Notes under the pieces: generated by a model
What the model saw: only the letters and a program-made list of their open reading frames with translations
Database searches by the model: none
What the model was told of the DNA's origin: nothing
NCBI GenBank assembly: GCA_051294905.1
Contig: CM119373.1
Coordinates: forward strand, 4,094,001-4,158,000
Source of the DNA: Botryllus schlosseri
Taxonomy: Eukaryota
Length of the DNA stretch: 64,000 nucleotides
Reading direction: 5' to 3'
Translations under genes and position numbers: made by a program
In this document: one piece after another, positions 16,707-41,926 of the stretch
Position numbering within the stretch: position 1 is the stretch's first letter
Layout: every line of letters starts with the position of its first letter

Positions 16707-17499
16707 ATGTATACTCATCAGTGTCTTTTGCTGATGATTTAAGAAGGTCGACTTCACGCGATCAATATGGGCTTTTCTTATACGATACCGCATACGCAGT
16801 GAGATCAGAGATGAGGAGCCCGGATAAACCTCCAACACATACAACGTGGCAGAACCATGACTCGGACCTAACCATTGGTGCCGCGACGGTGTCGCTCGGC
16901 ACACCGCGCCACTCGCTTCCCCTTTTGTGATTGTATTTTACGAAATACGAAAGATTTCTAAAATGCTCCTGGTCGACCGCTCCGATTTCGATGTTTAAAT
17001 TTGATTTTAACCGGCTGTCAAGTAGCGCTATCACGTGAAAATATCATTATATATTGTGCATCGGTGCGCAAAATTATATAATAGTTTTGAGACGAAATAA
17101 ACAGTTGACTTGCAGTCAATTTGAAATCAATTTCATTGCGCATAACATCGTGCGTCACAACATGAAGAACTATCGCTGACATTCGATCGAACATGGCGTT
17201 CTTTTTTGCAGATTGGCTCTATATTTTTCAAGAAATCACCTAGTTTGGATGTTTTAATTTTTTTCACGCTAGGTTACAATATATCCTAACGGCCTACATT
17301 AAATGTTTTAGAGTTAGTAGGTCCGTCTGCACTGAAACCACGAGAACGTGAGTAGTATATACGATCGCTGGCACATTGGTGTTTTTTGCATGGGGTATCA
17401 TAGGGCCCGCTCGCATGCGGCTGGGAAACTCGTGTTGGCATGCGGCTCTTATGTCTTATGGGCCCGCTCGCATGCGGCTATTGCGTCTTATGGCCCCTC

Positions 17500-17775
17500 T
17501 CGCACGGTAACCCTTTTCAGTATAGGGATCGCTTGCACACGGCTTCGAAATCTCGTGTTCGCACGCCCACCCTTTTTGACCCCCTCTCGGTCGCATGCGG
17601 CTATTGTGTCTTGTGGTCGCACGGTAACCCTTTTCAGTATAGGTATCGCTTGCACGCGGCTTCGAAATCCCGTGTTCGCACGACCACCCTTTTTGACCCC
17701 CTCTCGGTCGCATGCGGCTATTGTGTCTTGTGGTCGCACGGTAATCCTTTTCAGTATAGGGATCGGTCGCACGCA
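17500..17775. repeat. 117-bp tandem repeat in the terminal region (one more unit on the left arm than on the right, ~32685-32840)
   Basis: CGCACGGTAA(C/T)CCTTTTCAGTATAGG at 17501, 17618 and 17735. CGCATGCGGC motif repeated across 17410-17720. Confidence 0.9.
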
Positions 17776-20510
17776 GCTTCGTTGTTGGCATGTCGTACTT
17801 CGTGTTGAATATGTATCAAGTAAATAGTCATGTGAATGAACCTTTGTTAATGTGTATATCGTAAATTATTATATATGATGTCATAGTTCAGTCGCGACAA
17901 ATGACCGATCGTGTTCTAACTCAAGTCTTTCCTCGCTATTGATTGCTACGTAACCTGAATAATACTTTCAGATCGGATTATTCACACCTTCCATATACCG
18001 CTGTTTCGCGCCTACAGAATAGTCTCCTGTTCACAGTCGCAACTTCATCGCGATGCCGCGATTTTCACACCTCGATCAGTAGAACAACACCGCGCTAACC
18101 CAGTTGTCGAATCACATAGGTCGAACATTGTACGCGAAAATGAATTATTGCATTGAAAGGTGTGAAAAATTTGTAAAATCCTACGATCACCCACAAGATA
18201 ACACCTCAGACATAGTCATCTTTCACGACTTGGTGTCATAGCCATACCGATCGCTCACGCGGTGAAATTTTAGTAATCAGTTTGTCACAGAACTTGATTT
18301 CGCTGGTAAGATTTAATAAGTAACGACTAACAGAACCGCCAGTGTCGGTAACTTGAATAGCAACAAATTGCCACTTATTTCCGTCCTAACCCTAATCCTT
18401 TGTGAGGTTACCGCATACTCAAATAGGTGTGAAATAATTGTAAAATCCCACGATCGCTCACAAGGGTAAGGAATAACAGAACCACAACAACAGAACCCAC
18501 AAATTGTCAATTATTGGTATAACTCGAATCTTTTTAAGAGTATAATCCTTTTGAAACTGAATATTACTTGACTTGACCAACTTTTAACTCCGTTTCCGGA
18601 TCATTCACACATTCCACGCCTCTGTTATAACACTTATAGAATCAATACCAACTATCTCTAACCCGATAATATTCAATCATTTTGGTAATTTGCCGACTTT
18701 AAATCCGTTCGCCAGATGTACCACAGGTAAATCCAAATAATCCAGAATGAAATATTTGGACTTTGACATTGTGTGAATTGAAATATGTTTGACAAACATG
18801 ACTACCAACTTTCACCCAGTCACATTTCGAGATTATACGCACATTGATTTGAAACAAGTAATGAAACATTACAACTCTATTCGCGACCTGTCTTTACGTT
18901 TGTCAAAGAGAGTTTCAGTAATTACTATGGCGATATTTTAATGTGTTACTACACACAATAGAATCAATCAATGAAATATCACCCATTGTTGTAAACATTT
19001 CCAACTTGACAACCGCTTGCACATAACACGATCGAGTTGCAATGCGATGAGTTGAATCGGAATATTTCAAACTACTACATATCGCGATTTGAAGTAGGAT
19101 TGCCAGACAGGCTGGGTAAACTTTCACTCCACTGCGTTTCAGATTAATTTATTCACACGATCACCATCTCGCTGTCTTCGCACTTACACAATCGCGTACT
19201 GTTCCCACTCGCAACTTCGGTACGATATTTCAACTTGTCACAATAACTGATTATTCACATGTTGATTTGAAACAAAAGAAGCCTTGAACAAGTTATCTGG
19301 GTATTTTTTTGTCACAATTGAGTTAATGGAAATAGTATTACACCTCGAAATTTTAACATCTTACCATACTCAAAAGAGTCAATCATGAAAACCTTGTCAA
19401 GTAAATCCGTTTGTAACTTACCAGACCAACTAGACAGTACCCGTACAGAAAGAAGACAAGATTACGCGAGTACATACAATCGCTACAATCTAAAATCCAT
19501 AGCAAGTTCTGTTGTATTCATATACCGCCAAATCGTTTTTTTCTGTTCAACTGTAAAAGTCGTTACTATTCTGTAAGATAAAGTAATTACTACTCGGTGT
19601 ATTTTATAAACCAAAGTAAATACTACTCGGTGTGTGGTTTGAGATTAACCAATTACATTTGAGTATACGAGATTTGAATGTCTGACCAACGTAGTTGAGA
19701 ATTCATTTCTTACAATCGAACGCAGGCATTATATTGAAAATTTTCACGATGTAAACATATGAATTGACACATTGATTTTGACATATGAGATTTTGTATTA
19801 GTCGATCATGACTTGATTATTAAATTATGACATTATTAGACCAGGGTCGTGTTGAAGGTTATTACGATACCAACAAACTTTTCAGAAACATTGTTATTAG
19901 CATATCGATTTGTGAAACTAGATTAACATGTCTGAAATGTTTTGATTGGGAAGATTAAGCCGTGTTCGTAAAAACCACGCAGCGTATTATGGATATCAGG
20001 AAATATTTTACAAATGTAATTGTCTCCAGTAACCAAGACTAAAGATGAAACAACAATTTCCTTTGTTGAACAATAACCGGTACAATACTTTATCGTCGTA
20101 ATCTGCGGTGAGAATTGAAACACTTTCGCGCATTACCCGGTGTCAAGATATCACACTAGGTGAATTGACATACCGCCGCTTGATTAATACCTAATCCGTT
20201 CGCACCATTTCACATACTTTGATCATTACAAAAGTAAATTGGAATATGTTTGCTAGATGTATTCAATTCAGTTAGAAATGGCTGGTACACAACAATCGTA
20301 ATATCAAGGAAGTACTTGCTACACTGTAATTCACTTAACGTGTTTTGCATTGTTGTTCATTTGTAGTATTGATTGTTTTTGAACCCCCTAATAATAATTC
20401 CCGACATGAAACCAAACCGCTGAAAGTCGTTACCATCACAACGAAACAATTTGTACGATGTTTGCCAAATGTATCCTATAGTTAGGTGTACTAGAATTAT
20501 TTGTCTAACA

Positions 20511-21569
20511 CAGTGGTTCCCAACCTTTTTCGACTCATCGCCCCCTTTTCAAACTCCACACCGATAATCGCCCCCCAAATATTGGGAACCTAAAAATGGG
20601 CATACAGACTTAAATCACCGTCGAGTTGACTAATAAAAAAGGTCAACTTTTCGGCTCTACCCTGAAATTACACTTTTCCAGCTAAAGTTTGGTGAGTTGA
20701 CTAACAAAGAAGGTGAATTCTCCGACTTGCTTCCAAAAAGACCTTCGCACTTCGTCTCCCCCCCCCTCCCCAATAAGTTGGTCTTGACCCCCTCTCCATA
20801 GGGCGATAAAGCAAACTTCTTCAACCTTCAAACCAAACTCCCCCGATACCTCTTTACCGCTACTTCTCAGTAGAAATTGTTGGACTCCTAAGTTAGTCGG
20901 CCTAATTCGCGCAAAGCGCGAAAAATTTCTATCATTCATGATTGAATCGGTCAATATGATTGGGAATTGCATATATATATATTGCTGTCAATTTTTATCC
21001 TCTCTCTGCTCATGTATTCAGATTTACCGGTAAAGCTGAGTGAGGTGTCTTGGAAAATGTAGGGCCCGTAAATAATAATCGAACATATTCGGGCGGACCC
21101 GTCCGTATAATGACTTCATTACGTAATGGCATTTCGTGACCTGTCTGCTATGTCAAAAGATATTCAAATCGCCCATACGTACTAAACTAAAAGACGCACA
21201 CAATTTCAAATTGGTATTTCTGCACTGGCAATTGATTTTTATCCAATAAGCAAGAAATATGAGACCACGAAATATCGCGCAGCGCTAATTTTTTTGAAAA
21301 AGTTGCCTAAATTTCCAAAATAATACTCTATACTTAATGTTAATTCACGAAAAAATTGTGGGCCTCCTTCGAGCTCGGGCTCCCAATTGGGGGTTTGGGT
21401 GTGGCAGTTTCGGTCATGGACGCCAATATAGCCATTTCAACGCGCCATCGCCCCCCTATCGCCCCCTTCGTCCGTTTTCGCCCCCCTATCACCCCCTTGG
21501 CTATTTTCGCCCCCCTGGACCGACAAATCGCCCGCTGGGGGGCGATATCGCCCACGTTGGGAACCACTG
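20511..21569. mobile_element. hAT (Charlie-like) MITE within the left arm
   Basis: TIR CAGTGGTTCCCAAC / GTTGGGAACCACTG. 8-bp TSD GTCTAACA. ATCGCCCCC subterminal repeats. Confidence 0.92.
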
Positions 21570-23499
21570 GTCTAACACATACACCGACAATGCAATCGAA
21601 AATTTTTCCGTTGTCATTCGCTAAAGTAAATGTCATCACAATAATCTGTCACTAAAAGACGTTACTTGTATGTGATTGAATCCCTAACAATTATCTCACT
21701 AAACCGAACTCCAAAGAAATTTTACTCACTCGATGGATATGAAACAGCGTCGCTTAATCGGTCTATATCGTTTTTCTGAAGGTAAATCATATGCATCCAA
21801 TAGAAAACAATTTTCACTAGCTTGGTAATGAAACCGAAGTCTTCATTCAATATTTTGTTCGTGTCAAATACTTTGCAATAAACACACTGGAGTGGTTGAG
21901 CTTTACATCATCAGACTGTAATCTGTAAATCAAGCTTACATCCGATTTGTAACTGTATTGTTTACCTAACCGAGTTGTATGCACAGTTTGATATTTTTAT
22001 CATTTAGTGATTGTTGAACATACCACTTCGAAATACTGCGTTGATCTTAATTTCCATCATCGTGATAATCGAAGTACATTTCTTTCGAATTCGTAACAAC
22101 CGGCGTTTCTATGACATGATAAATTTTTGACAAGTTATGCTTAGAAGATTGGTTGCATATCGCGAAAAATAATATACCACTCATATTGATACTGTTACTC
22201 CATTGATCGATATTTGCAAACGAGTAAACTTTATTACTTGAGTTTCTCCGCTTAATGTAAATGTAAACTCAGCCGTCTTTTAACATCACAAAGACATTGA
22301 TAAAAAGTAGGCAATCAAACGCTACAAGTTTAACTTTTGTAGGTTGTGTATGATTACCCCACGCAACTCATTTCTTACCAAAGGTATATGAAATATATTC
22401 ATGGTACACGAAAATAATCGATATTCCCATGCTGCGAACCTGTACAATGATTGGTGGCGCTTTCAAACTGTTTCGATACCTCAAGACCTTTATTGTCTGA
22501 ATGGTTGTTCAATGTTCATGTATCTTAATAATCAAATAGTTCAACACAGAACTAGTACGAACAGAAACATCAGAGTTGTTTACACAAAAGTTTGTAAGTG
22601 TACAGTATGCGAATACCATGTGTAAGTCCAGCACAATTGTGGTATCCATCCGAGTTTAGTTAACACAATTTACGACACCGAGGTCGCCTCATCTTTCGTA
22701 AGACAACAAACCAACCAAGGCTTCAGGATATGTCCATGTCATAGCAATAAATCAGCTACTCCAAACAGAGTACAAATGTTTTCTAGTTACGGTGCTTACA
22801 TTTTACACACAAATCAATCTACTTTGCTAACGAAAAGTGCTGAGTCATCACATGGTTGTCCTCACAACAATACTACTAAAACATACTATCATACAAAATG
22901 GTCGTTATAGTTTGCACACCAACGGTATATCGTACAAGTAACAAGTCTCGAGAATCCAGTTATTCAAAAAACGTTAAAGTGTTTCTCCTGCGCCAAGTCG
23001 TTATGTTGACGAAAGCGTATATTGTAATATCATGATCGATTTGCATTCGTTGGTTACAAAATGTCACTACTCTAAATAATTATTTTTCACTCAAAAGCAT
23101 ACTTGTCACCATTCGTTTTCATCAAGCGCGAGTTCAAGAAACTTACCTACTACGACATGAATTGTTATTTTTATTTTGTGTAAATAGGTAATAATTAATT
23201 TTAGTAACACTATATCAACATCATCGAGTTGTGCGAAAAGATTTACATGTGGTCTTGTGGTTTTAATCGAAGTACACAGCACGGTCTAATGTAGAGTCAT
23301 CTCTATTGTACAGCAACTCGGTAATCGAAATGCATGCATTAACATTTAAACAGCGATCTTGTTTCGTCACGCGAAAAATATGTTCACTATCGCGATACTC
23401 TGCACAGGGCGTGGAAATCCTTTTCACATTCGTAATAGTATACCAACGGATACCGGTGACAACGTTTAACAATACCAACGACACTAAACATACGATACC

Positions 23500-23975
23500 T
23501 ACCCAAGTAAAATTTCCATTTTCACCTGGAGGTCAACCGTTACCTGAGTAAAAATACCATTGTCCTTTGGAGATTTATCGTTTACTCAGAGTAACAATAT
23601 ATTTTCACTTTGTGTTCTATCCTTTCCTGGAGTAACAAACCCCTTTTCCTTTGGAAATCTATTTTTTCCCTGGGTAACAAACCTTTTTCACTTGGAAATA
23701 TATTATTTCTCTGGGTAACAAACCTTTTTCACTTGGAAATATATTTTTTCCCTGAGCAACAAACCTTTTTCACTTGGAAATATATTTTTATCCAACAGCA
23801 ACAAACCATTTTCACTTGGAAAAATACTTTTACCTAGAGTAACTAATCATTTTGTTTTGGAAATATATTTTCTCCCTGGGTAACAAACCCTTTTCGTTTG
23901 GAAAACTATCATTTACCCGAGTACCAATACCGTTTGCACTTGGAAATCTATCTTTTCTCTGGGTAACAATACCAT
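23500..23975. repeat. Degenerate ~41-bp minisatellite, ~11 units (mirror copy ~26470-26945)
   Basis: Unit approximately TGGGTAACAAACCTTTTTCACTTGGAAATATATTTTTTCCC, e.g. TGGGTAACAA at 23671 and 23712. Confidence 0.85.
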
Positions 23976-24746
23976 TTTCGTTTTGAAAACTGACAACCAC
24001 ACCCGACAATTTGATATTTTTGTATATTGTTACAACGGGCAGTGACAAAATATACACCAACAACGACTCCGATACATTTGTGCAATCGCATATTCACTTG
24101 TGTTGGTGCATCCCATCAAAATCATCGGTTACCCACATGCAATGTGCTCTTGTATATCGAAATGTATGTTTGGGTAATTGGACAATAGGTTTCGATAGGT
24201 CTGTGATGTCCGGGTTCGTGCTTTGGATTGTCCAGAGTCAAAATGTCTGAATAAAACACCTCCTCGACGATGGTTGGTACGTGGATAACGGTGTTCGGAA
24301 AACGGTTGGATTTATGTCACCCATCGCGATAACAATTCCAGGTCGAGTTTTCCCCCGCATGTTTACTATATTGTGTCTTTATTGGTCAATGTATGTCTCG
24401 ACATTCAGTTTGAAATCAGAAACCCTGATAAAGTATGTAACCGGATCCAGATATCAACTCTGAATCGATAAACCAATGAACAATATTCAAAGTAAACATG
24501 TTACACCCTGTGTTTCCACGAAAAAATACCATCCAGACATACGTCGCGCTTGTTTGCCCACACCAGTATACGCGTAAATGGAGGTGTGTGACATTGCGTG
24601 CAATGTGTTGGTATACAAACATCGGGGAGTAAGCCTTCGATCCACAGACATTATCATAGCCGGTAATTTTAATGCAGATCGAATGTCATCAAGCACACCC
24701 GATAACAATGTCATACCAATAAGCCACATTGCAATGACTCTGAGTC

Positions 24747-25699
24747 CGCGCTATAACATCGATATTTCGACACCGTTCACTGATTTACTCGACGGTTTTA
24801 TCGCGTTGTAACATTACAAGATAGTCATGACCCTATATCCAAACAGATCACCCAGATCGCTAGTGACTGGATACATCGGTCAATATCCGTCGTGTTGTCG
24901 ACACCGAAGTTCTCTGCTGACACTGCAGCGTTTGACCAATGTGAAATATCGAAGTACGGGTGCTTGAAATGATTGCGATCAGTCTTTCAGTCACGATGCA
25001 TGGATGTCGCTACTCCCACATAACGAGTCCAGATAAATATCGTGAACAGTGATTCTGCAAATCTCGGACTGATACTGTGATCCAATAAGGTATGTTTCTG
25101 TGGAATGAAGACTGCAATCGTACACCACAATAGAACACTACCTCGTGATTTCACACGCAATCATAAAACACACTTTCGTAAGGGTCCAGTTCGTCCGGCG
25201 ACATTTCGAAACGGTCATCACAACAAAAGATCGGGGTTGGTCTCGTCTTATCGGAGCATTTTGAAACTGTCATCACCACAGGCTATTGACGTTGGTTTCA
25301 GTTGGTCATGTCAATCCGTTTCACAATCCACCGCTTTTCAACTCCCCACACCATAGTGTTACGACACAGACAAGATGCGATGGTGGAAATAATAAAACAC
25401 GGAAGGCACACTTTGGTGTTATTTGACATGGATTTTACACCCGACGAACCTCACATTCGAGCGATGCATTGGAACGCCACTTGTATTATTGACATCGAAG
25501 GGAAAGAAATGTATCGATTCATTGGTTTCGTACATATCCAACAAAAACCAGGGTATATGATTGTGCATGTTTCGCATATTCGACTGTGAACGCTCTATTG
25601 GTATTTGTTGTACAGTTCACTTTCACCACTAATGGTAGTCGTGCGAATACCCCATGTTACGGTTCCATGTTTGTGTGTCTGTATGTCATGCTTCAGATT
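24747..25699. other. Unique 953-bp central spacer of the palindromic element
   Basis: Only non-mirrored part of 17351-32990. Bounded by GACTCTGAGTC (24736-24746) and GACTCAGAGTC (25700-25710). Confidence 0.9.
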
Positions 25700-27469
25700 G
25701 ACTCAGAGTCATTGCAATGTGGCTTATTGGTATGACATTGTTATCGGGTGTGCTTGATGACATTCGATCTGCATTAAAATTACCGGCTATGATAATGTCT
25801 GTGGATCGAAGGCTTACTCCCCGATGTTTGTATACCAACACATTGCACGCAATGTCACACACCTCCATTTACGCGTATACTGGTGTGGGCAAACAAGCGC
25901 GACGTATGTCTGGATGGTATTTTTTCGTGGAAACACAGGGTGTAACATGTTTACTTTGAATATTGTTCATTGGTTTATCGATTCAGAGTTGATATCTGGA
26001 TCCGGTTACATACTTTATCAGGGTTTCTGATTTCAAACTGAATGTCGAGACATACATTGACCAATAAAGACACAATATAGTAAACATGCGGGGGAAAACT
26101 CGACCTGGAATTGTTATCGCGATGGGTGACATAAATCCAACCGTTTTCCGAACACCGTTATCCACGTACCAACCATCGTCGAGGAGGTGTTTTATTCAGA
26201 CATTTTGACTCTGGACAATCCAAAGCACGAACCCGGACATCACAGACCTATCGAAACCTATTGTCCAATTACCCAAACATACATTTCGATATACAAGAGC
26301 ACATTGCATGTGGGTAACCGATGATTTTGATGGGATGCACCAACACAAGTGAATATGCGATTGCACAAATGTATCGGAGTCGTTGTTGGTGTATATTTTG
26401 TCACTGCCCGTTGTAACAATATACAAAAATATCAAATTGTCGGGTGTGGTTGTCAGTTTTCAAAACGAAAATGGTATTGTTACCCAGAGAAAAGATAGAT
26501 TTCCAAGTGCAAACGGTATTGGTACTCGGGTAAATGATAGTTTTCCAAACGAAAAGGGTTTGTTACCCAGGGAGAAAATATATTTCCAAAACAAAATGAT
26601 TAGTTACTCTAGGTAAAAGTATTTTTCCAAGTGAAAATGGTTTGTTGCTGTTGGATAAAAATATATTTCCAAGTGAAAAAGGTTTGTTGCTCAGGGAAAA
26701 AATATATTTCCAAGTGAAAAAGGTTTGTTACCCAGAGAAATAATATATTTCCAAGTGAAAAAGGTTTGTTACCCAGGGAAAAAATAGATTTCCAAAGGAA
26801 AAGGGGTTTGTTACTCCAGGAAAGGATAGAACACAAAGTGAAAATATATTGTTACTCTGAGTAAACGATAAATCTCCAAAGGACAATGGTATTTTTACTC
26901 AGGTAACGGTTGACCTCCAGGTGAAAATGGAAATTTTACTTGGGTAGGTATCGTATGTTTAGTGTCGTTGGTATTGTTAAACGTTGTCACCGGTATCCGT
27001 TGGTATACTATTACGAATGTGAAAAGGATTTCCACGCCCTGTGCAGAGTATCGCGATAGTGAACATATTTTTCGCGTGACGAAACAAGATCGCTGTTTAA
27101 ATGTTAATGCATGCATTTCGATTACCGAGTTGCTGTACAATAGAGATGACTCTACATTAGACCGTGCTGTGTACTTCGATTAAAACCACAAGACCACATG
27201 TAAATCTTTTCGCACAACTCGATGATGTTGATATAGTGTTACTAAAATTAATTATTACCTATTTACACAAAATAAAAATAACAATTCATGTCGTAGTAGG
27301 TAAGTTTCTTGAACTCGCGCTTGATGAAAACGAATGGTGACAAGTATGCTTTTGAGTGAAAAATAATTATTTAGAGTAGTGACATTTTGTAACCAACGAA
27401 TGCAAATCGATCATGATATTACAATATACGCTTTCGTCAACATAACGACTTGGCGCAGGAGAAACACTT

Positions 27470-30400
27470 TAACGTTTTTTGAATAACTGGATTCTCGAGA
27501 CTTGTTACTTGTACGATATACCGTTGGTGTGCAAACTATAACGACCATTTTGTATGATAGTATGTTTTAGTAGTATTGTTGTGAGGACAACCATGTGATG
27601 ACTCAGCACTTTTCGTTAGCAAAGTAGATTGATTTGTGTGTAAAATGTAAGCACCGTAACTAGAAAACATTTGTACTCTGTTTGGAGTAGCTGATTTATT
27701 GCTATGACATGGACATATCCTGAAGCCTTGGTTGGTTTGTTGTCTTACGAAAGATGAGGCGACCTCGGTGTCGTAAATTGTGTTAACTAAACTCGGATGG
27801 ATACCACAATTGTGCTGGACTTACACATGGTATTCGCATACTGTACACTTACAAACTTTTGTGTAAACAACTCTGATGTTTCTGTTCGTACTAGTTCTGT
27901 GTTGAACTATTTGATTATTAAGATACATGAACATTGAACAACCATTCAGACAATAAAGGTCTTGAGGTATCGAAACAGTTTGAAAGCGCCACCAATCATT
28001 GTACAGGTTCGCAGCATGGGAATATCGATTATTTTCGTGTACCATGAATATATTTCATATACCTTTGGTAAGAAATGAGTTGCGTGGGGTAATCATACAC
28101 AACCTACAAAAGTTAAACTTGTAGCGTTTGATTGCCTACTTTTTATCAATGTCTTTGTGATGTTAAAAGACGGCTGAGTTTACATTTACATTAAGCGGAG
28201 AAACTCAAGTAATAAAGTTTACTCGTTTGCAAATATCGATCAATGGAGTAACAGTATCAATATGAGTGGTATATTATTTTTCGCGATATGCAACCAATCT
28301 TCTAAGCATAACTTGTCAAAAATTTATCATGTCATAGAAACGCCGGTTGTTACGAATTCGAAAGAAATGTACTTCGATTATCACGATGATGGAAATTAAG
28401 ATCAACGCAGTATTTCGAAGTGGTATGTTCAACAATCACTAAATGATAAAAATATCAAACTGTGCATACAACTCGGTTAGGTAAACAATACAGTTACAAA
28501 TCGGATGTAAGCTTGATTTACAGATTACAGTCTGATGATGTAAAGCTCAACCACTCCAGTGTGTTTATTGCAAAGTATTTGACACGAACAAAATATTGAA
28601 TGAAGACTTCGGTTTCATTACCAAGCTAGTGAAAATTGTTTTCTATTGGATGCATATGATTTACCTTCAGAAAAACGATATAGACCGATTAAGCGACGCT
28701 GTTTCATATCCATCGAGTGAGTAAAATTTCTTTGGAGTTCGGTTTAGTGAGATAATTGTTAGGGATTCAATCACATACAAGTAACGTCTTTTAGTGACAG
28801 ATTATTGTGATGACATTTACTTTAGCGAATGACAACGGAAAAATTTTCGATTGCATTGTCGGTGTATGTGTTAGACCAGTGGTTCCCAACGTGGGCGATA
28901 TCGCCCCCCAGCGGGCGATTTGTCGGTCCAGGGGGGCGAAAATAGCCAAGGGGGTGATAGGGGGGCGAAAACGGACGAAGGGGGCGATAGGGGGGCGATG
29001 GCGCGTTGAAATGGCTATATTGGCGTCCATGACCGAAACTGCCACACCCAAACCCCCAATTGGGAGCCCGAGCTCGAAGGAGGCCCACAATTTTTTCGTG
29101 AATTAACATTAAGTATAGAGTATTATTTTGGAAATTTAGGCAACTTTTTCAAAAAAATTAGCGCTGCGCGATATTTCGTGGTCTCATATTTCTTGCTTAT
29201 TGGATAAAAATCAATTGCCAGTGCAGAAATACCAATTTGAAATTGTGTGCGTCTTTTAGTTTAGTACGTATGGGCGATTTGAATATCTTTTGACATAGCA
29301 GACAGGTCACGAAATGCCATTACGTAATGAAGTCATTATACGGACGGGTCCGCCCGAATATGTTCGATTATTATTTACGGGCCCTACATTTTCCAAGACA
29401 CCTCACTCAGCTTTACCGGTAAATCTGAATACATGAGCAGAGAGAGGATAAAAATTGACAGCAATATATATATATATGCAATTCCCAATCATATTGACCG
29501 ATTCAATCATGAATGATAGAAATTTTTCGCGCTTTGCGCGAATTAGGCCGACTAACTTAGGAGTCCAACAATTTCTACTGAGAAGTAGCGGTAAAGAGGT
29601 ATCGGGGGAGTTTGGTTTGAAGGTTGAAGAAGTTTGCTTTATCGCCCTATGGAGAGGGGGTCAAGACCAACTTATTGGGGAGGGGGGGGGAGACGAAGTG
29701 CGAAGGTCTTTTTGGAAGCAAGTCGGAGAATTCACCTTCTTTGTTAGTCAACTCACCAAACTTTAGCTGGAAAAGTGTAATTTCAGGGTAGAGCCGAAAA
29801 GTTGACCTTTTTTATTAGTCAACTCGACGGTGATTTAAGTCTGTATGCCCATTTTTAGGTTCCCAATATTTGGGGGGCGATTATCGGTGTGGAGTTTGAA
29901 AAGGGGGCGATGAGTCGAAAAAGGTTGGGAACCACTGTGTTAGACAAATAATTCTAGTACACCTAACTATAGGATACATTTGGCAAACATCGTACAAATT
30001 GTTTCGTTGTGATGGTAACGACTTTCAGCGGTTTGGTTTCATGTCGGGAATTATTATTAGGGGGTTCAAAAACAATCAATACTACAAATGAACAACAATG
30101 CAAAACACGTTAAGTGAATTACAGTGTAGCAAGTACTTCCTTGATATTACGATTGTTGTGTACCAGCCATTTCTAACTGAATTGAATACATCTAGCAAAC
30201 ATATTCCAATTTACTTTTGTAATGATCAAAGTATGTGAAATGGTGCGAACGGATTAGGTATTAATCAAGCGGCGGTATGTCAATTCACCTAGTGTGATAT
30301 CTTGACACCGGGTAATGCGCGAAAGTGTTTCAATTCTCACCGCAGATTACGACGATAAAGTATTGTACCGGTTATTGTTCAACAAAGGAAATTGTTGTTT

Positions 30401-32430
30401 CATCTTTAGTCTTGGTTACTGGAGACAATTACATTTGTAAAATATTTCCTGATATCCATAATACGCTGCGTGGTTTTTACGAACACGGCTTAATCTTCCC
30501 AATCAAAACATTTCAGACATGTTAATCTAGTTTCACAAATCGATATGCTAATAACAATGTTTCTGAAAAGTTTGTTGGTATCGTAATAACCTTCAACACG
30601 ACCCTGGTCTAATAATGTCATAATTTAATAATCAAGTCATGATCGACTATTACAAAATCTCATATGTCAAAATCAATGTGTCAATTCATATGTTTACATC
30701 GTGAAAATTTTCAATATAACGCCTGCGTTCGATTGTAAGAAATGAATTCTCAACTACGTTGGTCAGACATTCAAATCTCGTATACTCAAATGTAATTGGT
30801 TAATCTCAAACCACACACCGAGTAGTATTTACTTTGGTTTATAAAATACACCGAGTAGTAATTACTTTATCTTACAGAATAGTAACGACTTTTACAGTTG
30901 AACAAAAAAAAAACGATTTGGCGGTATATGACTACAACAGAACTTGCTATGGATTTTAGATTGTAGCGATTGTATGTACTCGCGTAATCTTGTCTTCTTT
31001 CTGTACGGGTACTGTCTAGTTGGTCTGGTAAGTTACAAACGGATTTACTTGACAAGGTTTTCATGATTGACTCTTTTGAGTATGGTAAGATGTTAAAATT
31101 TCGAGGTGTAATACTATTTCCATTAACTCAATTGTGACAAAAAAATACCCAGATAACTTGTTCAAGGCTTCTTTTGTTTCAAATCAACATGTGAATAATC
31201 AGTTATTGTGACAAGTTGAAATATCGTACCGAAGTTGCGAGTTGGAACAGTACGCGATTGTGTAAGTGCGAAGACAGCGAGATGGTGATCGTGTGAATAA
31301 ATTAATCTGAAACGCAGTGGAGTGAAAGTTTACCCAGCCTGTCTGGCAATCCTACTTCAAATCGCGATATGTAGTAGTTTGAAATATTCCGATTCAACTC
31401 ATCGCATTGCAACTCGATCGTGTTATGTGCAAGCGGTTGTCAAGTTGGAAATGTTTACAACAATGGGTGATATTTCATTGATTGATTCTATTGTGTGTAG
31501 TAACACATTAAAATATCGCCATAGTAATTACTGAAACTCTCTTTGACAAACGTAAAGACAGGTCGCGAATACAGTTGTAATGTTTCATTACTTGTTTCAA
31601 ATCAATGTGCGTATAATCTCGAAATGTGACTGGGTGAAAGTTGGTAGTCATGTTTGTCAAACATATTTCAATTCACACAATGTCAAAGTCCAAATATTTC
31701 ATTCTGGATTATTTGGATTTACCTGTGGTACATCTGGCGAACGGATTTAAAGTCGGCAAATTACCAAAATGATTGAATATTATCGGGTTAGAGATAGTTG
31801 GTATTGATTCTATAAGTGTTAAAACAGCGGCGTGGAATGTGTGAATGATCCGGAAACGGAGTTGAAAGTTGGTCAAGTCAAGTAATATTCAGTTTCAAAA
31901 GGATTATACTCTTAAAAAGATTCGAGTTATGCCAATAATTGACAATTTGTGGGTATTCAAGTCGTTGCCGTTGTGGTTCTGTTATTCCTTACCCTTGTGA
32001 GCGATCGTGGGATTTTACAATTATTTCACACCTATTTGAGTATGCGGTAACCTCACAAAGGATTAGGGTTAGGACGGAAATAAGTGGCAATTTGTTGCTA
32101 TTCAAGTTACCGACACTGGCGGTTCTGTTAGTCGTTACTTATTAAATCTTACCAGCGAAATCAAGTTCTGTGACAAACTGATTACTAAAATTTCACCGCG
32201 TGAGCGATCGGTATGGCTATGACACCAAGTCGTGAAAGATGACTATGTCTGAGGTGTTATCTTGTGGGTGATCGTAGGATTTTACAAATATTTCACACCT
32301 TTCAATGCAATAATTCATTTTCGCGTACAATGTTCGACCTATGTGATTCGACAACTGGGTTAGCGCGGTGTTGTTCTACTGATCGAGGTGTGAAAATCGC
32401 GGCATCGCGATAAAGTTGCGACTGTAAACA
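27470..32430 (+). pseudogene. Heavily decayed F-box / cysteine-containing LRR (FBXL/AMN1-like) coding remnants, mirrored on the - strand at ~18030-22975
   Basis: F-box-like FE*LDSRDLL then (frameshift) IPLVCK at 27478-27535. LRR-CC-like fragments ISRCNTI (~31098), IISYCDKL (~31195), ISKCDWV (~31616), LVSDRGILQLF (~31995), QVTDTG (~32103) and TDRGVKIAA (~32378). Many stops and frameshifts. Confidence 0.5.
28877..29937. mobile_element. Mirror copy of the hAT MITE within the right arm
   Basis: Same TIRs. TSD TGTTAGAC at 28869-28876 and 29938-29945. Confidence 0.92.
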
Positions 32431-33391
32431 GCAGACTATTCTGTAGGCGCGAAACAGCGGTATATGGAAGGTGTGAATAATCCGATCTGAAAGTATTATT
32501 CAGGTTACGCAGCAATCAATAGCGAGGAAAGACTTGAGTTAGAACACGATCGGTCATTTGTCGCGACTGAACTATGACATCATATATAATAATTTACGAT
32601 ATACACATTAACAAAGGTTCATTCACATGACTATTTACTTGATACATATTCAACACGAAGTACGACATGCCAACAACGAAGCTGCGTGCGACCGATCCCT
32701 ATACTGAAAAGGGTTACCGTGCGACCACAAGACACAATAGCCGCATGCGACCGAGAGGGGGTCAAAAAGGGTGGTCGTGCGAACACGAGATTTCGAAGCC
32801 GCGTGCAAGTGATCCCTATACTGAAAAGGGTTACCGTGCGAGAGGGGCCATAAGACGCAATAGCCGCATGCGAGCGGGCCCATAAGACATAAGAGCCGCA
32901 TGCCAACACGAGTTTCCCAGCCGCATGCGAGCGAACCCTATGATACCCCACGCAAAAAACACCAATGTGCCAGCGATCGTATATACTACTAACGTGACAA
33001 ATGTAAAACACAATTAAATCGGCGGAACGAAACTGTGCTGCATAAATCTATTTCATTCCACATATGGAACAAGAAAATGCCCCATTTATTCGTATTGTCA
33101 TCGGATTCTCCTAATATATTATAATTTGTGACAATAAGCTTCCTATACCGATAAATGTGCTTGAAGTAAACTACAAATAGCAGTAATTTGGTAATAACAA
33201 ACCAAGTAGGCCTATACCTGAACCCTTAAAAGACAATAATTTCTAAACACAGACGCAATTAACAAGGAAGCAATACTTTTTGTTTACCAATGAGTATTCA
33301 AATCTTCTCGTAAAAATAAACCAATATCGGGATGTGCATTAATGAAGTTCTTAGATACAACTCCACGTCTGATTAGGTCGGCGCGGTGAAC

Positions 33392-33399: not shown

Positions 33400-33512
33400 T
33401 GTTGGAGCTCCTCCGCGAATCCGTTAACTCTGGCGAAAGTTCAGCGAGTATCTGCAGGCCGTGATATAGAGAAAGCTATACCTCAACGTTGCTCTGACTC
33501 TCGCATCGCGAG

Positions 33513-34805
33513 ATGTCAGAGTCACATTCCTCACAGGAGATTGTGGATTTATCTTGGACCAAAAACACTTCAATGAAACGCAAACCTGACAGGACATCGA
33601 CAGATGACGGGGATACTAATAGTCCACCAGCAAAATTGAGATCAAGCTTACAGGTAGTTGAGGAAGAGATGAAGGTTGTATTACAAGGTTTGGGTAGATC
33701 GATGAAGTTCTATCACCCAACAAAGGTGCACAGCTGCTTGCACAACACCATTGGTGATTACGAAACGATTAAAGTGATGCCGTCTGGCGATCTCCTAGTT
33801 ACGTGTAAGAGTAAAAAGCAATTGACGAAGCTTCTTGAACAAGACACTTTAACCGATGCTGCTAAAAAGGTCAATATACCAGTCAAAGCGGTGATGTACA
33901 AAACGGAAAGCAAAGTCTATAACTCCAGAGCGGTTATATATGGAATCGACATTGAGACAACTGAAGACGAAATACGACAAGATCTGAAAGAGTATGGAGT
34001 GACTTTCGTCAAGAGACTGAAAACAAGGACGGACAAAGGATATGAGCCAAGCTATTGTATATTACTGGGGTTTGATTCTCCCACACCACCTGAACGAGTC
34101 TTCATCGGATACCTATCACTTAGAACAAGACCGTACAACCCTCCACCGCTTCGCTGCTACAAATGTAATAGATACGGGCATACCAGTAAGTACTGTCGAG
34201 GAAAGCAATCTTGTACTAAATGTGGTAGTCAAGAACATGAGTACAAAACATGTAACTCGTCGGTGAGAAATTGTATTAACTGCAATGGAACGCACAGTGC
34301 AGCATATGCGGGATGCCCTGCGTACAAAAGAGAAGCAAAAATCCAAGTTATCTGCGAAAGGGAAAATGTACAGTACAAAGAAGCAAAGACAAGATTTGAA
34401 ACGTATGCGGATGTATGCTCAAGCCATGTTGGTAAAGATTCTAGCGAACCACAGGTTGTGAAAGAGCACAACCAAGCAAGTATCAGAACCCGCAGCTCTA
34501 CGATCCCCACCCAACCACGTGGAAACGATTGCAATCCAAGTCATTTGTCGGCGAGTTCCCCCGCGTGGGAAGGCAGCGACAACGTTCCGAACTTGCAGTC
34601 ACTCTTTGCGGGTGTTCATCCGCTTTTGTTTTTCGCCTTCTTAACAGATATAGTGAACGAGTCGGTACTTGCCAGTCGGTCCGACGCTGCTGTAGATATG
34701 TCTTACCTGATTTCGTCTGCTACAAAAAAATGGTTGAGCGTGGCCATTGACACTGAATCCCTGAAGAATATGCTCAGCTCAATACCTCAAAATGTTCAGC
34801 AGTGA
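33513..34805 (+). CDS. LINE ORF1 (gag-like nucleic-acid-binding protein, three CCHC knuckles)
   Basis: 430 aa. CYKCNRYGHTSKYC, CTKCGSQEHEYKTC and CINCNGTHSAAYAGC. Confidence 0.93.
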   Translation: MSESHSSQEIVDLSWTKNTSMKRKPDRTSTDDGDTNSPPAKLRSSLQVVEEEMKVVLQGLGRSMKFYHPTKVHSCLHNTIGDYETIKVMPSGDLLVTCKSKKQLTKLLEQDTLTDAAKKVNIPVKAVMYKTESKVYNSRAVIYGIDIETTEDEIRQDLKEYGVTFVKRLKTRTDKGYEPSYCILLGFDSPTPPERVFIGYLSLRTRPYNPPPLRCYKCNRYGHTSKYCRGKQSCTKCGSQEHEYKTCNSSVRNCINCNGTHSAAYAGCPAYKREAKIQVICERENVQYKEAKTRFETYADVCSSHVGKDSSEPQVVKEHNQASIRTRSSTIPTQPRGNDCNPSHLSASSPAWEGSDNVPNLQSLFAGVHPLLFFAFLTDIVNESVLASRSDAAVDMSYLISSATKKWLSVAIDTESLKNMLSSIPQNVQQ

Positions 34806-37800
34806 CGGAATCCATATTTTACAATGGAATTGCCGAGGAATTTATCGAAAATTGCCGGAGTTTAAGAGATACATTGTCGAGCTCGCACAACCGCCAGACA
34901 TAATTGTGTTGCAAGAGACGCACTTGGTGGAAAGATATAAGCCGAAATTTGATGGATATCAGCTATACAGAAAGGACAAAACTGTACGCAGTGGTGGATT
35001 AGCAATCCTAATCAGGGAGGATATTCCGCATAGCTGCGTCGATATTGTTGCGCCTGAACGAATCGATGTTCTATGTATCGTTGTTGCTGGTAACAAGATT
35101 TGTAATGTATACATAGCCCCGGACTCTCCTTCAACAAAAAATGATTTCGTCTTTCTGAACCAACTAGCAACAAAATCTATCATAGTGGGAGACTTCAATT
35201 CCCATCACCAGGCCTGGGGATCGGATAGGGCAAATAAAAGAGGTGCTAATCTGTACGATTCATTGGATCGTTTTAACCTAGTCATCTTGAACACCACGAT
35301 GCCAACTCACGTGAACATCGCTATCAACGCAATCAGGAGGTGGTCTCTCATTGACTTATGCATTGCATCATCTGACATAGCCTATAAATGTAACACATCA
35401 GTAACAGATGATCTCCTGGGAAGTGACCATCTTATCGTATCAACCTATTTTATGGCGCGTGCAGAGAGGGTAGAGTTATGGCCTCTAAACTGGTCTCTCA
35501 AGAAAGCCGACTGGTATAGCTTCAGCAGTCACTTCACGTACCCGCAGGCTGCCGACCTCTGCAGTTCCGTTGATGAAGCGGTAGCGGATTTCTCGGAGAG
35601 GATTGTGCATGCAGCAAGCCTCTCAATTCCAATGACGCGAAGCTATAGGAAGGCACCGAAATCATGGTGGAATGACAAATGTGCCAGGGCAGTCCGAAGG
35701 AAGAAAGCTGCGTTTCTCAAAATGAAAAGATCCTTCAATCCTACTGACATAATACAGTTCAAGAAAATGAGAGCCGAGTGCAGAAGAACAATTTTAGCAT
35801 GCAAACGGGAATCATGGACTTCGTATTGCGATAATCTCGGTAATAAAGCGAATTTCCAACAGGTATGGAGGGTTGTTAAATCTCTCTCTGATAAATCGAA
35901 TAACACGTCAGTAGCAACGTTGAAGATTGATGGTAGGAATATCACGGAAAGCAAACAGAAAGCCGATGTTCTTGCACGGACTTTTCAAAAAGTAAGCAGT
36001 TCCAGTAATTTTTCGCCAACGTTTACACGCAGTATCCCACTGGTAGTACCAGAATGTACCAGAAATACCGAAAGCAACGACAAGCTTAATGATTTATTTA
36101 CCATGAAGGAGTTGTTGATGGCGATAAACGGAAAAAAGAATACGTCACCTGGAGCTGATATCTTGTGTTATTCAATGTTCAAACACCTTCCTTCTGGAGG
36201 ACTGGAAAATATGCTGAATATTATCAACCTTTCATGGATAAGAGGGGATATACCGCAAGACTGGAAGCATTCCATAGTTATCCCTATACCGAAACAGAAT
36301 AAGGATGTGTCGTCGCCCAATTCATACAGACCGATTTCCTTGACCAGTCACTTTTGCAAGATAATAGAAACGATGATAACGACTAGACTTAATTGGTACT
36401 TAGAGAAGAACAAACTGTTGAATTCGTCGCAATGTGGTTTCAGACGGGGAAGACGAGCACTGGACAATGTAATGCGGCTGCACGATGATGTATACAAAGC
36501 TATCAATAATGGAAGATTCGTACTCGCAGTATTCCTCGACATACAGCGCGCTTATGATATGGTCTGGCGGGAAGCAGTTGTCTTCAAACTGAAATGCATG
36601 GGTGTCGCCGGTTACATGTTGACATGGATAGCAAATTTTCTCCAAAACAGGACGTTTCAAGTGCGGGTAGGCGCGAGTCTATCCGAAAGGTATATATTAG
36701 AGAATGGCATACCGCAGGGGAGTGTAATTAGTCCAATTTTGTTTTCAATAATGATTAATGACTTACCCTCAACATTGCTTTGTCAATTTGGTTTATATGC
36801 AGACGACTGTGTTATCTGGGAGACGTCGCTAAAGATACAGGATCTCAAGAACCGAATACAGGATGACCTCAACAAGATTCAAAGATGGTGCGAAAAATGG
36901 GGATTTATCATATCTGTCGAAAAAACAGAGGCCGTCTTATTCACAAAGAAAAGAAAATACACAATGCCCGAGATCTATGTGGGGGAAAATTTAATACGGT
37001 TTGTGAACTCTTTCAAATACCTCGGTATCTATTTTGACAGTAAACTGACTTATCAACGTCATATCACCTATGTCGCTGACAAATGTATGAAGAGAATTAA
37101 CTTTATGCGAATGCTTTGTGGCACATCATGGGGCGCATGTAAAGAAACCCTGTTAGTTATATATAAAACTCTTATTAGACCTGTCTTAGAATATGGTATG
37201 GAAGCGTACTTTTTCGCCCCCAAGACGCATTTAACAAAAATCGAGACATTACGTAACCAGGCACTCAGAATATGCACTGGGGCTATGAGAAGCACGCCGA
37301 TATGCGTCCTAGAGGCCGAATGCAATGACATGCCTTTGAAAAATAGACATGCGTTGAAATGCTCAAAGTATCGCTACCATCTAAAAACGCAACAGGACAA
37401 TCTGGCCAATGATATACTCGAAAGCTCGTGGGAAGAAACATACAGTCTGCTAAATAGACGGTTCGTCACCTTTAATATCCTATCTAGGGTTGCTGATATT
37501 GACCAACTACGGATTTGTGGAAGCGAAATCTCGACGACTCCTCCATGGACAATTTTAACAGCAAATGTGGACCTTTCTTTGTGCCACTCAATACGCAAGA
37601 TATATCCCCCCGATGTCAGAAAATCAGTATCATTAGATCATATATTCTCTACATATCATGGCTACACTCAGATTTTCACAGATGGATCCAAGACTGAGAC
37701 AGGGTGTGGATACGCTTATCATATTCCAAATATTACTACGTCTGCAAATTCATTGCCGCCCTATTTTTCAGTATTCTCAGCCGAACTAATCGCTATTTCA

Positions 37801-38502
37801 GATTCCCTATCTTGGGTGCTGAATAATATCCACAGTAGAGTGGCAATACTCAGTGATTGCTTGAGCGCATTAACGTGTATAGCAAATTTCAATTTCGCAG
37901 CTCCTCTCCTCATTACCGAGATAGTCGAGAAGATACACCAATTGAAACAACGCGAGGTCACAGTATCACTTGTGTGGATTCCAGCACACTGTGGTATTCA
38001 GCACAATGAAATCGCCGACCAATTTGCAAGAAGCGCTACAGCATCAGAAACACCGCCCCGTCAACAATTGGACTTCGTCTCCGTAGGGGATGCGTACTCG
38101 CTCCTTTGGAACTCGTGCAGAAACAACTGGGATCAACTGTACAGGACAAGCGACACCGGAAGTCAGTACAAACTCATCAAAGACACGATTTACAAGAGGT
38201 TACCAAGTTTAGCATCGAGAAAAGAGCAAATCATTCTGTTTCGGTTGAGATCAGGCCATTGTCGGCTCAACTACCACCTGCATAAGATTGGATGTAATGA
38301 TTCTCCTCTATGTGAACAATGTTCGTTGCCCGAAACCGTCGATCATTATCTAATGAACTGTTTGAAGTATGTACGGCAACGTGCGAATCTGAAACGCCAT
38401 ATTAATAATGACAGTCTTTTTAATACAGTAGACCTATTAACTAGTGAATGCATGTTGGATCATGTCATTCAATATGTCAAGGAAACAAGGCGTTTTATTT
38501 AA
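34792..38502 (+). CDS. LINE ORF2: AP endonuclease - reverse transcriptase - RNase H - CCHC
   Basis: 1236 aa. APE motifs QWNCRG, LQET, GDFNSHH, SDH. RT motifs YRPISL, PQGSVISP, YADD, KYLG. RNase H motifs FTDGS, AEL, SDC, WIPAHCGIQHNEIAD. C-terminal CEQC..ETVDHYLMNC. Confidence 0.97.
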   Translation: MFSSDGIHILQWNCRGIYRKLPEFKRYIVELAQPPDIIVLQETHLVERYKPKFDGYQLYRKDKTVRSGGLAILIREDIPHSCVDIVAPERIDVLCIVVAGNKICNVYIAPDSPSTKNDFVFLNQLATKSIIVGDFNSHHQAWGSDRANKRGANLYDSLDRFNLVILNTTMPTHVNIAINAIRRWSLIDLCIASSDIAYKCNTSVTDDLLGSDHLIVSTYFMARAERVELWPLNWSLKKADWYSFSSHFTYPQAADLCSSVDEAVADFSERIVHAASLSIPMTRSYRKAPKSWWNDKCARAVRRKKAAFLKMKRSFNPTDIIQFKKMRAECRRTILACKRESWTSYCDNLGNKANFQQVWRVVKSLSDKSNNTSVATLKIDGRNITESKQKADVLARTFQKVSSSSNFSPTFTRSIPLVVPECTRNTESNDKLNDLFTMKELLMAINGKKNTSPGADILCYSMFKHLPSGGLENMLNIINLSWIRGDIPQDWKHSIVIPIPKQNKDVSSPNSYRPISLTSHFCKIIETMITTRLNWYLEKNKLLNSSQCGFRRGRRALDNVMRLHDDVYKAINNGRFVLAVFLDIQRAYDMVWREAVVFKLKCMGVAGYMLTWIANFLQNRTFQVRVGASLSERYILENGIPQGSVISPILFSIMINDLPSTLLCQFGLYADDCVIWETSLKIQDLKNRIQDDLNKIQRWCEKWGFIISVEKTEAVLFTKKRKYTMPEIYVGENLIRFVNSFKYLGIYFDSKLTYQRHITYVADKCMKRINFMRMLCGTSWGACKETLLVIYKTLIRPVLEYGMEAYFFAPKTHLTKIETLRNQALRICTGAMRSTPICVLEAECNDMPLKNRHALKCSKYRYHLKTQQDNLANDILESSWEETYSLLNRRFVTFNILSRVADIDQLRICGSEISTTPPWTILTANVDLSLCHSIRKIYPPDVRKSVSLDHIFSTYHGYTQIFTDGSKTETGCGYAYHIPNITTSANSLPPYFSVFSAELIAISDSLSWVLNNIHSRVAILSDCLSALTCIANFNFAAPLLITEIVEKIHQLKQREVTVSLVWIPAHCGIQHNEIADQFARSATASETPPRQQLDFVSVGDAYSLLWNSCRNNWDQLYRTSDTGSQYKLIKDTIYKRLPSLASRKEQIILFRLRSGHCRLNYHLHKIGCNDSPLCEQCSLPETVDHYLMNCLKYVRQRANLKRHINNDSLFNTVDLLTSECMLDHVIQYVKETRRFI

Positions 38503-39965
38503 ATGTTTATATCTCTGAATTCGTAGTGGTTATGTCTCCGAATTGGATGTGTGCCTACAGATCACTCAAATATGCCTGTGCCTCTGTCGACGATTTATTT
38601 CTTTTTTCATCATTCTAATATTTCTTGGATGACAAGTTTGTGCATTTCTCATATGCATGCTATGGTGTGACGCAAAAGGCTTTAATGTGAAAAGCGTCAC
38701 TATCTTTTCATCGTTTTTACCAATAATAATAATAATAATAAGATACAACTCCTGTTATCAGCTCAAACTAGCTTGAAGTCATCCGCAGGAAAGTCATCCT
38801 GTACGATTTTGATGGGACGGATTTGCAATAGGCAGCTGGCAGTAATCAGTCACAATGTGAGCATTCCAACTATATCGATATTTCTTTTCAATTTATATGA
38901 TTTATAGGAGAAACCGTCCACCTCGTTCCTCAGTCACATTTCTCGAATTTTCGTAAAAGCGATGACACTCAACTTTTATGCTCCTAATTATCCTTGAACC
39001 AAGAACGTTCGTGAACGTCACTTCCACGTTATTCCCATAGTTTCCATTTTTGTCGTCTCATCCCATGTCAAATCCTTCGCTGTGTAGCTGATCTTGAATA
39101 AAAGTCGCTGGTTTACTCTGTATTCGTAATAATGTTGAGGATTCGGTGTTAATGCATTTTCTACAACATATACTATTGTCATCTGCATCTTACAATACAT
39201 GCCATATCGTAGATCTGGCAGGGACGTAAAGCTGCAATTGGAATTTCAGGGAATTGGCTGTAAAGCAGAGTCAATGTCGAAGAAGTTCTATAACTTTTTA
39301 TTTCAACCTTACATCTTATTCATTTAAAAATATAGATCACCATGGTGGCTCTTTAGCTCCACAAAACCACGGGGATTACAAATTGAATCATTTAGACCAG
39401 TGGTTCTCAACCTTTTCGTCTTCGCGGACCCCTTTTCGAGCGTCACGGACACCCGTGGACCCCCAAAGATTTTGTTCAAATTAAGCTCTATATTACCGTG
39501 GCACCGGCATCCTGTCCTGAGCAGATATCAGCTGTAGGCTAGTGATAAACAGCAACATAATGACCATTCTGGAAAATAATATCACAGGCTATGATTCATA
39601 GCCTGCTATTTATGTAGATATTGAGAATACTTTTATTATTTCAAAGCTAATTCTGCAGCTACATTTCTCGAAATACCCGATCGTGTCTGGGAAGTACGCG
39701 TCGTCTATTAGATATGAACCAAGCCATGAACTACTGCAATCTCCGGCTAAGCAAATTTGCGTTGTCACCATGTTACAGTTGCATTGTGGGGAATAGGCTG
39801 GACGACTTAGTACAGGCGCTTATGGAAAAACGTCCAGTTTTAAAATATATTTGATTCGTATTGGGTTTGTAGTATTTTATACGAATGGAGCTTTGAATGA
39901 ATAATCATCGTAACATTCAGGATTTGTTTCAGCCCAATATCTCGTGTTTATATCTGTGTTATCTG

Positions 39966-41907: not shown

Positions 41908-41926
41908 GTTATCTGTGTATTTCGAC

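Follow-up and report, generated by a model that had tools for sequence, protein, structure and literature searches.

We analysed a window of 64,000 nucleotides of the Botryllus schlosseri genome (assembly GCA_051294905.1, contig CM119373.1, positions 4,094,001 to 4,158,000, forward strand), in which an insertion of 15,640 bp (17351-32990) is built as an almost complete palindrome: two inverted arms enclose a short spacer, and the inverted repeat makes up 93.9% of the element (Table 1). The element is real, and belongs to a large family of giant palindromic, non-autonomous Polintons that is satellite-like in behaviour. It begins with AGTAGTATAT... at the left and ends with ...ATATACTACT at the right, the terminal (AGT)2 motif being present at its ends, and exact copies of the 6-bp target-site duplication (TSD) AACGTG flank it on both sides. 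The first-pass annotation, made from the sequence alone, had described such a palindrome with Polinton-type ends, integrated as a unit, and in this it was correct, as seen from the two arms and the spacer, from the combination of the (AGT)2 motif with a 6-bp TSD, and from the single exact duplication shared by the whole palindrome. It had also described the centre as unique, which holds inside the element but not in the genome, where the spacer is present in many copies. There is no N anywhere in the window.

No frame of 170 codons or more occurs within the element, and neither long frames nor matches to the proteins of the helper Polinton described below reveal a polymerase B, rve integrase, capsid, ATPase or protease gene in it. 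The arms, at 7.3-7.4 kb, exceed the ~50-1,450 bp terminal inverted repeats (TIRs) that are typical of Polinton/Maverick elements. It departs from these elements in its genes and in the length of its TIRs, and is therefore not an autonomous Polinton. The absence of polymerase, integrase and capsid genes had been read as gene loss; the element is not gene-free, as its spacer holds an open reading frame (ORF) of 93 codons that is under purifying selection.

A large family of palindromes

In the genome-wide comparisons that follow, copy numbers are counts of candidates and not a census, and matches were scored for a part of the candidates. With the first 150 bp of the element as query, 950 candidates were obtained; the 40 that were scored hold 107 matches, among them 13 further inverted pairs separated by 13-39 kb. 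All 40 scored matches to the spacer, from 1,050 candidates, have 88-100% identity, and all 150 scored matches to the spacer ORF, from 1,174 candidates, have 84-100%; inverted arms flank the ten best spacer matches and, equally, each of ten further ORF matches taken down the list. Among 32 inverted pairs that were fetched, both ends are visible in 25 and an exact 6-bp TSD in 20, so that other palindromic copies with TSDs of their own, the existence of which had been anticipated, are indeed found. These 20 palindromes range in length from 12.9 to 19.3 kb (median 13.8). From the candidate counts we estimate a family of hundreds to about 1,000 copies.

An arm segment of the window copy is 77-92% identical to 31 other copies, and the arms inside one copy are mostly 98-100% identical to each other. 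Many copies are young, with 0-2 differences over arms of 6 kb, and yet diverge by 8-23% from copy to copy. By these comparisons the arm body and the spacer are a lineage of their own, common to the palindromes. Flipping of the spacer was also considered, and rejected: its orientation varies among copies, but this is no evidence of flipping because a palindrome has no fixed orientation.

Some loci are arranged in more complex ways. A palindrome's left end, together with the flanking sequence and the same TSD, recurs four times in tandem in L027-L029 (spacing 5.5-8.1 kb, 99.9% identity). Two separate elements, L013/L014 and L021/L023, have an identical 6-bp flank in inverted orientation; in L013/L014 a second terminus lies ~400 bp farther out on both sides, a pattern that looks like an insertion into the end of another element that was later mirrored.

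A candidate helper with the same ends and target sites

One palindrome carries in one of its arms a coding element of 14.9 kb that is bounded by a separate 6-bp TSD and encodes an rve integrase with a chromodomain and an A32-like ATPase. A frame of a related copy scores above the cut-off of PF03175; the PF03175 profile search of the genome, which returned no match, must therefore be a false negative, and a Pox_A32 search of the genome returned only one distant match. The capsid-like protein of the helper has an atlas score of 0.98 to clusters in which 14-30% of the members carry the jelly-roll family PF21738, and 85 of its 97 scored matches in the genome are 95-100% identical. Two helper copies were measured, at 14.9 and 16.5 kb. 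Two other frames we tentatively take to encode a protease and a single-stranded DNA-binding (SSB) protein. Two further Polinton families of the genome (L098/L099 and L062/L063) have capsids 79% and 33% identical to that of the first, and ends unlike those of the helper and the palindromes.

The first 45 bp of the ends consist of short modules with recurring alleles, which are combined so variably that 29 of 31 helper ends and 56 of 57 palindrome ends are distinct. The 31 helper ends cannot be told from the 57 palindrome ends by any of five terminal modules (p 0.30-0.96), and the two classes have two 45-mers in common. The target sites follow the same pattern: the 6-bp flank has a central CG at 19 of 31 helper ends and 31 of 56 palindrome ends, against a background of 4%. 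An autonomous-type coding Polinton with the ends of the palindromes, which the first-pass annotation had expected somewhere in the genome, is thus present; ends in common with a coding Polinton of the same genome, and dispersed copies that combine their own TSDs with the target bias of the helper, are what a non-autonomous Polinton family would have. From the shared ends and target bias we infer that helper enzymes may mobilise the palindromes in trans.

Helper ends are on average 78% identical over their first 50 bp, versus 95% on the gene side (29 ends). In 18 of 20 palindromes the left and right ends are identical or a single base apart. Over its last 150 bp (right ends, L100-L131) the helper is likewise hypervariable and modular, with 25 module combinations among 27 ends and capsid genes 97-100% identical. 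End modules only 5-10 bp apart have little or no association in helper and palindrome ends, which suggests shuffling on a very fine scale.

Some palindromes have captured more than the end. The helper SSB-like gene is found in both arms of L024/L026 and of L051/L052 (91-92% identity), and the helper protease-like gene in both arms of L011/L012 (80%); in each case the captured genes are collinear with the left or right end of the helper. The window copy carries neither.

Sequence copied from arm to arm

The main inverted alignment of the element has 99.1% identity over 7,243 bp. The left and right arms are distinguished by 23 substitutions and 5 gaps, one of which is a 117-bp tandem unit, and all of the substitutions are confined to 17390-19798. 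From 19798 to 24746, over ~4.9 kb, the sole difference is 2 bp within a TA run. If the arms had aged uniformly, such clustering would have p ~1e-11 (computed for 22 substitutions). When 21 outer difference sites are compared with the rest of the family, 7 are private to the left arm, 6 are private to the right arm, 7 are segregating and 1 is without data.

A second indication comes from a 1,059-bp miniature inverted-repeat transposable element (MITE) with an 8-bp TSD, which is found at mirror positions of both arms and which we take to be of the hAT type, going by the motif at its ends and the length of its TSD. The genome contains its exact junction in two places, one in each arm. These copies are 100% alike, the closest other copy among 40 scored has 96%, and the empty site is seen in 17 related arms. 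Since the junction is limited to these two arms, the copies are identical and 17 sites are empty, the sequences indicate that a single MITE insertion was copied from one arm to the other. This copying may have occurred on the chromosome or during mobilisation, and recombination with a lost sister copy would look alike.

Differences between arms grouped in blocks are also seen in L136, L142, L144 and L057, in outer, middle or inner parts of the arms. L025 (4276-7403) has an 11-kb insertion in one arm, with frames of 614, 243 and 200 codons that have no Pfam matches.

The reading frame of the spacer

The spacer ORF is free of stops in all 23 full-length matches; one copy is frameshifted and one has a damaged start. 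The ratio of nonsynonymous to synonymous substitution rates (dN/dS) is 0.25 between two types that are ~60% identical and 0.26-0.28 within types, with changes mostly at third positions, and among 70 frames screened this one has the lowest ratio of nonsynonymous to synonymous polymorphism (pN/pS). Of 25 sequences in this screen, 13 were marked for indels and 11 for stops, which probably come from codons before the ATG and from a variant two codons shorter. By the above ratios, the ORF is under purifying selection.

The encoded protein has no Pfam, NCBIfam or PDB match. One near-identical homologue was found, and a search against 1.84 billion representatives returned 2 hits, one family member and one repeat protein that we take to be a chance match; atlas scores were <0.9, and the predicted fold had a predicted local distance difference test score (pLDDT) of 39. 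The spacer has no Rfam match and a folding z of 0.32. Derivation of the protein from a packaging ATPase was considered and rejected, as the only signal consisted of weak collinear scores to three ATPases of the genome (6.7, 5.0 and 4.6 bits), with a profile-profile probability of 1-2%; a reciprocal search was negative, and not one outside homologue among 24 scored above 3 bits. In three raw runs 73, 215 and 126 RNA reads aligned, with a depth of 5-7 over part of the ORF; the reads are mostly 90-99% alike and therefore come from other family members, so that they indicate low transcription at the level of the family only and are too weak to show expression of the window copy. Sequencing runs labelled as two other organisms contain 28-29% of the spacer words and were left out of the evidence.

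In the inner arm, an 80-codon frame at 24490-24729 on the minus strand, mirrored in the right arm, has no stops in 33 of 33 full-length matches and a pN/pS of 0.60. At 24057-24284 a peak of RNA reads on one strand is seen in two single-cell runs, and could be a transcript end from family members.

Features of the element and its surroundings

The features of the element are collected in Table 1. About 500 bp to its right lies an apparently intact retrotransposon without long terminal repeats (33498-38502), with a 435-codon frame and a 1,245-codon frame for endonuclease, reverse transcriptase and RNase H; locus L032 holds a similar pair of frames. The window also contains a 42-bp tandem array of ~50 copies (58572-60719) with a short relative at 62734-62878, and two smaller inverted-repeat elements (48544-50024 and 39780-45174) with arms of ~600 bp and 186 bp.

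Table 1. Features of the palindromic element, in positions of the window
Feature	Position	Strand	Basis or remark
Left 6-bp TSD AACGTG	17345..17350	+	Sequence; central CG fits the bias common to helper and palindromes
Left arm, 7,396 bp	17351..24746	+	Self-alignment
Terminal (AGT)2 and modular hypervariable end	17351..17400	+	Same allele pool as helper Polinton ends
Segment resembling the helper TIR, with tandem units of 32, 58 and 117 bp	17403..18155	+	67-89% to helper copies
Outer zone with all 23 arm-arm substitutions	17390..19798		Arm comparison
Putative hAT-type MITE, left copy; 14-bp inverted ends, 8-bp TSD	20511..21569	+	hAT label from end motif and TSD length
Left-arm tandem array of 41-bp units, conserved in the family	23589..23979	+	Repeat and family comparison
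Spacer, 953 bp; high-copy in genome; junction position conserved in closest copies	24747..25699		Arm and genome comparison
93-codon ORF, family unassigned, under purifying selection	25308..25589	+	dN/dS, pN/pS
Right arm, 7,291 bp	25700..32990	-	Self-alignment
41-bp tandem array, right arm	26455..26903	-	Repeat finding
Mirror copy of putative hAT-type MITE, mirrored 8-bp TSD	28877..29937	-	Arm comparison
Right 6-bp TSD AACGTG	32991..32996	+	Sequence

Alternative origins of the palindrome

The origin put forward in the first-pass annotation was a snap-back or copy-back defective genome, in which one end of a helper Polinton is duplicated by template switching. A near-total palindrome (93.9%) with two helper-type ends is what such an event would leave, and some members of the family do hold a mirrored helper end with its first gene. 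However, of the 8,350 bp that arm and spacer together comprise, no more than 588 can be aligned with one or the other of two helper copies, nearly all of these in or just beyond the helper TIR; the helper proteins have no match in the element (best E 0.01), a second Polinton family that was tested matches nowhere in the arm, and the spacer ORF, compared with 799 helper frames, matches none of them significantly (best E 0.49). The accessible text of PMC13506859 describes snap-back genomes as non-coding copies of their parent, but here the spacer has an ORF with a dN/dS of about 0.25. A recent origin of this kind from one helper end is thus quite improbable, and the duplication of a helper end is not supported, arm and spacer being a separate lineage, although an ancient snap-back origin from an unsampled Polinton may lie behind it. 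Outside its cis signals the element is mostly unrelated to the helper, and it has a gene of its own, as viral satellites do; of the satellite or defective-interfering class that had been proposed we retain the satellite, since the palindromes have the look of a satellite family of long standing and not of a newly made defective-interfering genome.

It is also conceivable, if unlikely, that the palindromes are non-autonomous Polintons moved by the helper integrase alone (by cut-and-paste or copy-out), and that gene conversion or break repair lengthened their arms and made them alike on the chromosome, the process proposed for Galileo foldback elements, with neither satellite replication nor packaging. 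The distribution of differences fits, since 23 outer differences split over both arms next to an identical inner 4.9 kb are what ageing followed by a conversion tract would leave, and no sister copy above 96% was scored for the identical inner region; a host MITE that is present in the two arms points to a phase on the chromosome, and extension of TIRs by such repair is described for Galileo in the available part of PMC3573991. Against it stand the many young copies with nearly identical arms that are so divergent from each other, the fact that the two ends of a palindrome share one of many terminal variants in 18 of 20 cases, as fits equalisation at each mobilisation, and the uptake of helper ends, which suggests co-replication; the two processes can coexist. 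A foldback transposon of another superfamily, with ends that merely resemble those of Polintons, is more improbable still. Foldback elements typically have long arms with internal repeats (PMC3573991, as far as its accessible text goes) and the element has no Polinton core gene, but against this stand the identical 45-bp ends, the common module alleles, a CG bias and a TSD length that agree with those of the helper, and the captured helper genes; the common ends have already largely refuted it. As to an assembly artefact made from fold-back reads, the identical inner arms could in principle come from polishing, and the locus is known from the assembly; with non-palindromic flanks carrying an exact TSD, arms that differ, 20 other loci with TSDs of their own, a conserved spacer junction and one-arm insertions that carry their own TSDs, we give this practically no weight.

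Comparison with known systems

The comparisons below refer to the accessible parts of the cited papers. Polinton/Maverick elements have (AGT)2//(ACT)2 or (AG)3 ends, a 6-bp TSD, TIRs of 46-1,447 bp and a length of 12.7-24.6 kb (PMC8097293; PMC3014272). The element shares with them the (AGT)2//(ACT)2 ends, the 6-bp TSD and a length within this range; it differs in its 7.3-kb arms and in having one orphan ORF in place of polymerase, integrase, ATPase, capsid and protease. A Polinton-related insertion that contains a palindrome is on record in Chinook salmon, where an insert of ~20 kb holds a 10-kb palindrome (PMC2584663); in the part of that paper available it is a single case noted in passing, with no family, helper, gene or mechanism. 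With snap-back and copy-back defective viral genomes (PMC13506859) the element has in common near-complete self-complementarity, the retention of both ends and, presumably, helper dependence; those genomes are non-coding copies of the parent, whereas the element is mostly non-helper sequence, integrated and multi-copy, with a selected gene.

Galileo and other foldback elements also have long, internally repetitive TIRs, the longest being those of non-autonomous Galileo copies, and show TIR extension, chimeras and conversion (PMC3573991). Galileo belongs to the P superfamily, with TIRs of up to ~1.3 kb and 7-bp flanks (PMC3573991); the palindromes have arms of ~6-7 kb, a 6-bp TSD and Polinton ends, so that of the characters of Galileo and P-type elements they have the long repetitive TIRs and lack the 7-bp TSD and the P-superfamily ends. 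On the expansion of inverted repeats in Polintons the same paper refers to a review of 2007. Viral satellites and transpovirons (PMC11296320; PMC5499653) are similar in being linear DNA with inverted ends, few genes and a larger virus-like helper; their helpers are large DNA viruses. Here that part probably falls to an endogenous Polinton, and nearly the whole element is a palindrome. Our literature search found no paper describing a palindromic family of this kind, but the founding Polinton papers and Repbase lay outside it, and a prior description is possible.

A probable satellite of an endogenous Polinton

We consider it probable that this large family of 13-16 kb palindromes, with a small conserved gene of its own, is a satellite replicated and integrated in trans by the polymerase and integrase of the high-copy helper Polinton. 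This reading builds on the observed structure and family, the common ends and target bias, the capture of helper ends, the copying between arms and the selected ORF. In the proposed mechanism the protein-primed polymerase of the helper would copy the element from its ends, and the displaced strand would fold into a long stem with a 1-kb loop. Repair or template switching within the stem would equalise the arms, correcting mismatches, and the helper integrase would insert the product with a 6-bp duplication. Co-replication would allow satellite and helper to swap terminal segments, which would then be mirrored. More speculatively, the palindrome might hold a gene-poor element near the length of the helper genome, which would suit packaging. 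Panhandle replication and restoration of homology are published models for protein-primed replicons (PMC11886824; PMC4196379, in the parts accessible).

Several points weigh against this interpretation. Exact TSDs are missing from 12 of the 32 fetched pairs, which are nested, truncated, extend past the fetched stretch or are unexplained, and one locus has a single end without a long arm; the size of the family, moreover, derives from counts that are not a census. In the helper, motif patterns for the polymerase identify three motifs and not the fourth in one frame, and the polymerase activity of the helper family is predicted rather than established; the SSB-like frame has weak database hits only (E 0.006; E 0.6) and the protease-like frame has no meaningful database hit. 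The argument from near-helper size is thin, as it relies on the two helper copies measured. In a test for conversion in place, private alleles common to both arms (7 of 1,201 outer and 23 of 2,853 inner columns, p 0.55) do not tell where the arms are equalised, and several copies have an insertion in one arm only; since such insertions persist, arm copying is not constant. The spacer protein has neither an assigned family nor a reliable fold. Mobilisation in trans, extrachromosomal forms and packaging are inferred and were not observed, and direct evidence for the panhandle is, according to the available text of PMC11886824, still lacking.

A bolder proposal, which we advance tentatively and hold to be possible rather than likely, is that the palindromes represent a satellite class of animal Polinton viruses: hairpin genomes of near-helper length, each with its own conserved gene, that depend for replication, packaging and integration on an endogenous Polinton less numerous than themselves and trade combinatorially shuffled terminal modules with it in an arms race over replication origins.

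Polinton replication in animals has so far been modelled and not observed. A large family of dependent palindromes, in which arms have been equalised, helper ends captured and hypervariable termini shared, is a natural record of the Polinton cycle, to which the present copy adds a mirrored host MITE, a sharp boundary between differing and identical arm, and modular ends common with the helper; the panhandle model thereby becomes testable from genomes alone. Packaging, if it takes place, would make the palindromes satellites of a virus-like element that is endogenous. Hundreds of 13-kb palindromes would also bear on genome stability, assembly and repeat annotation.

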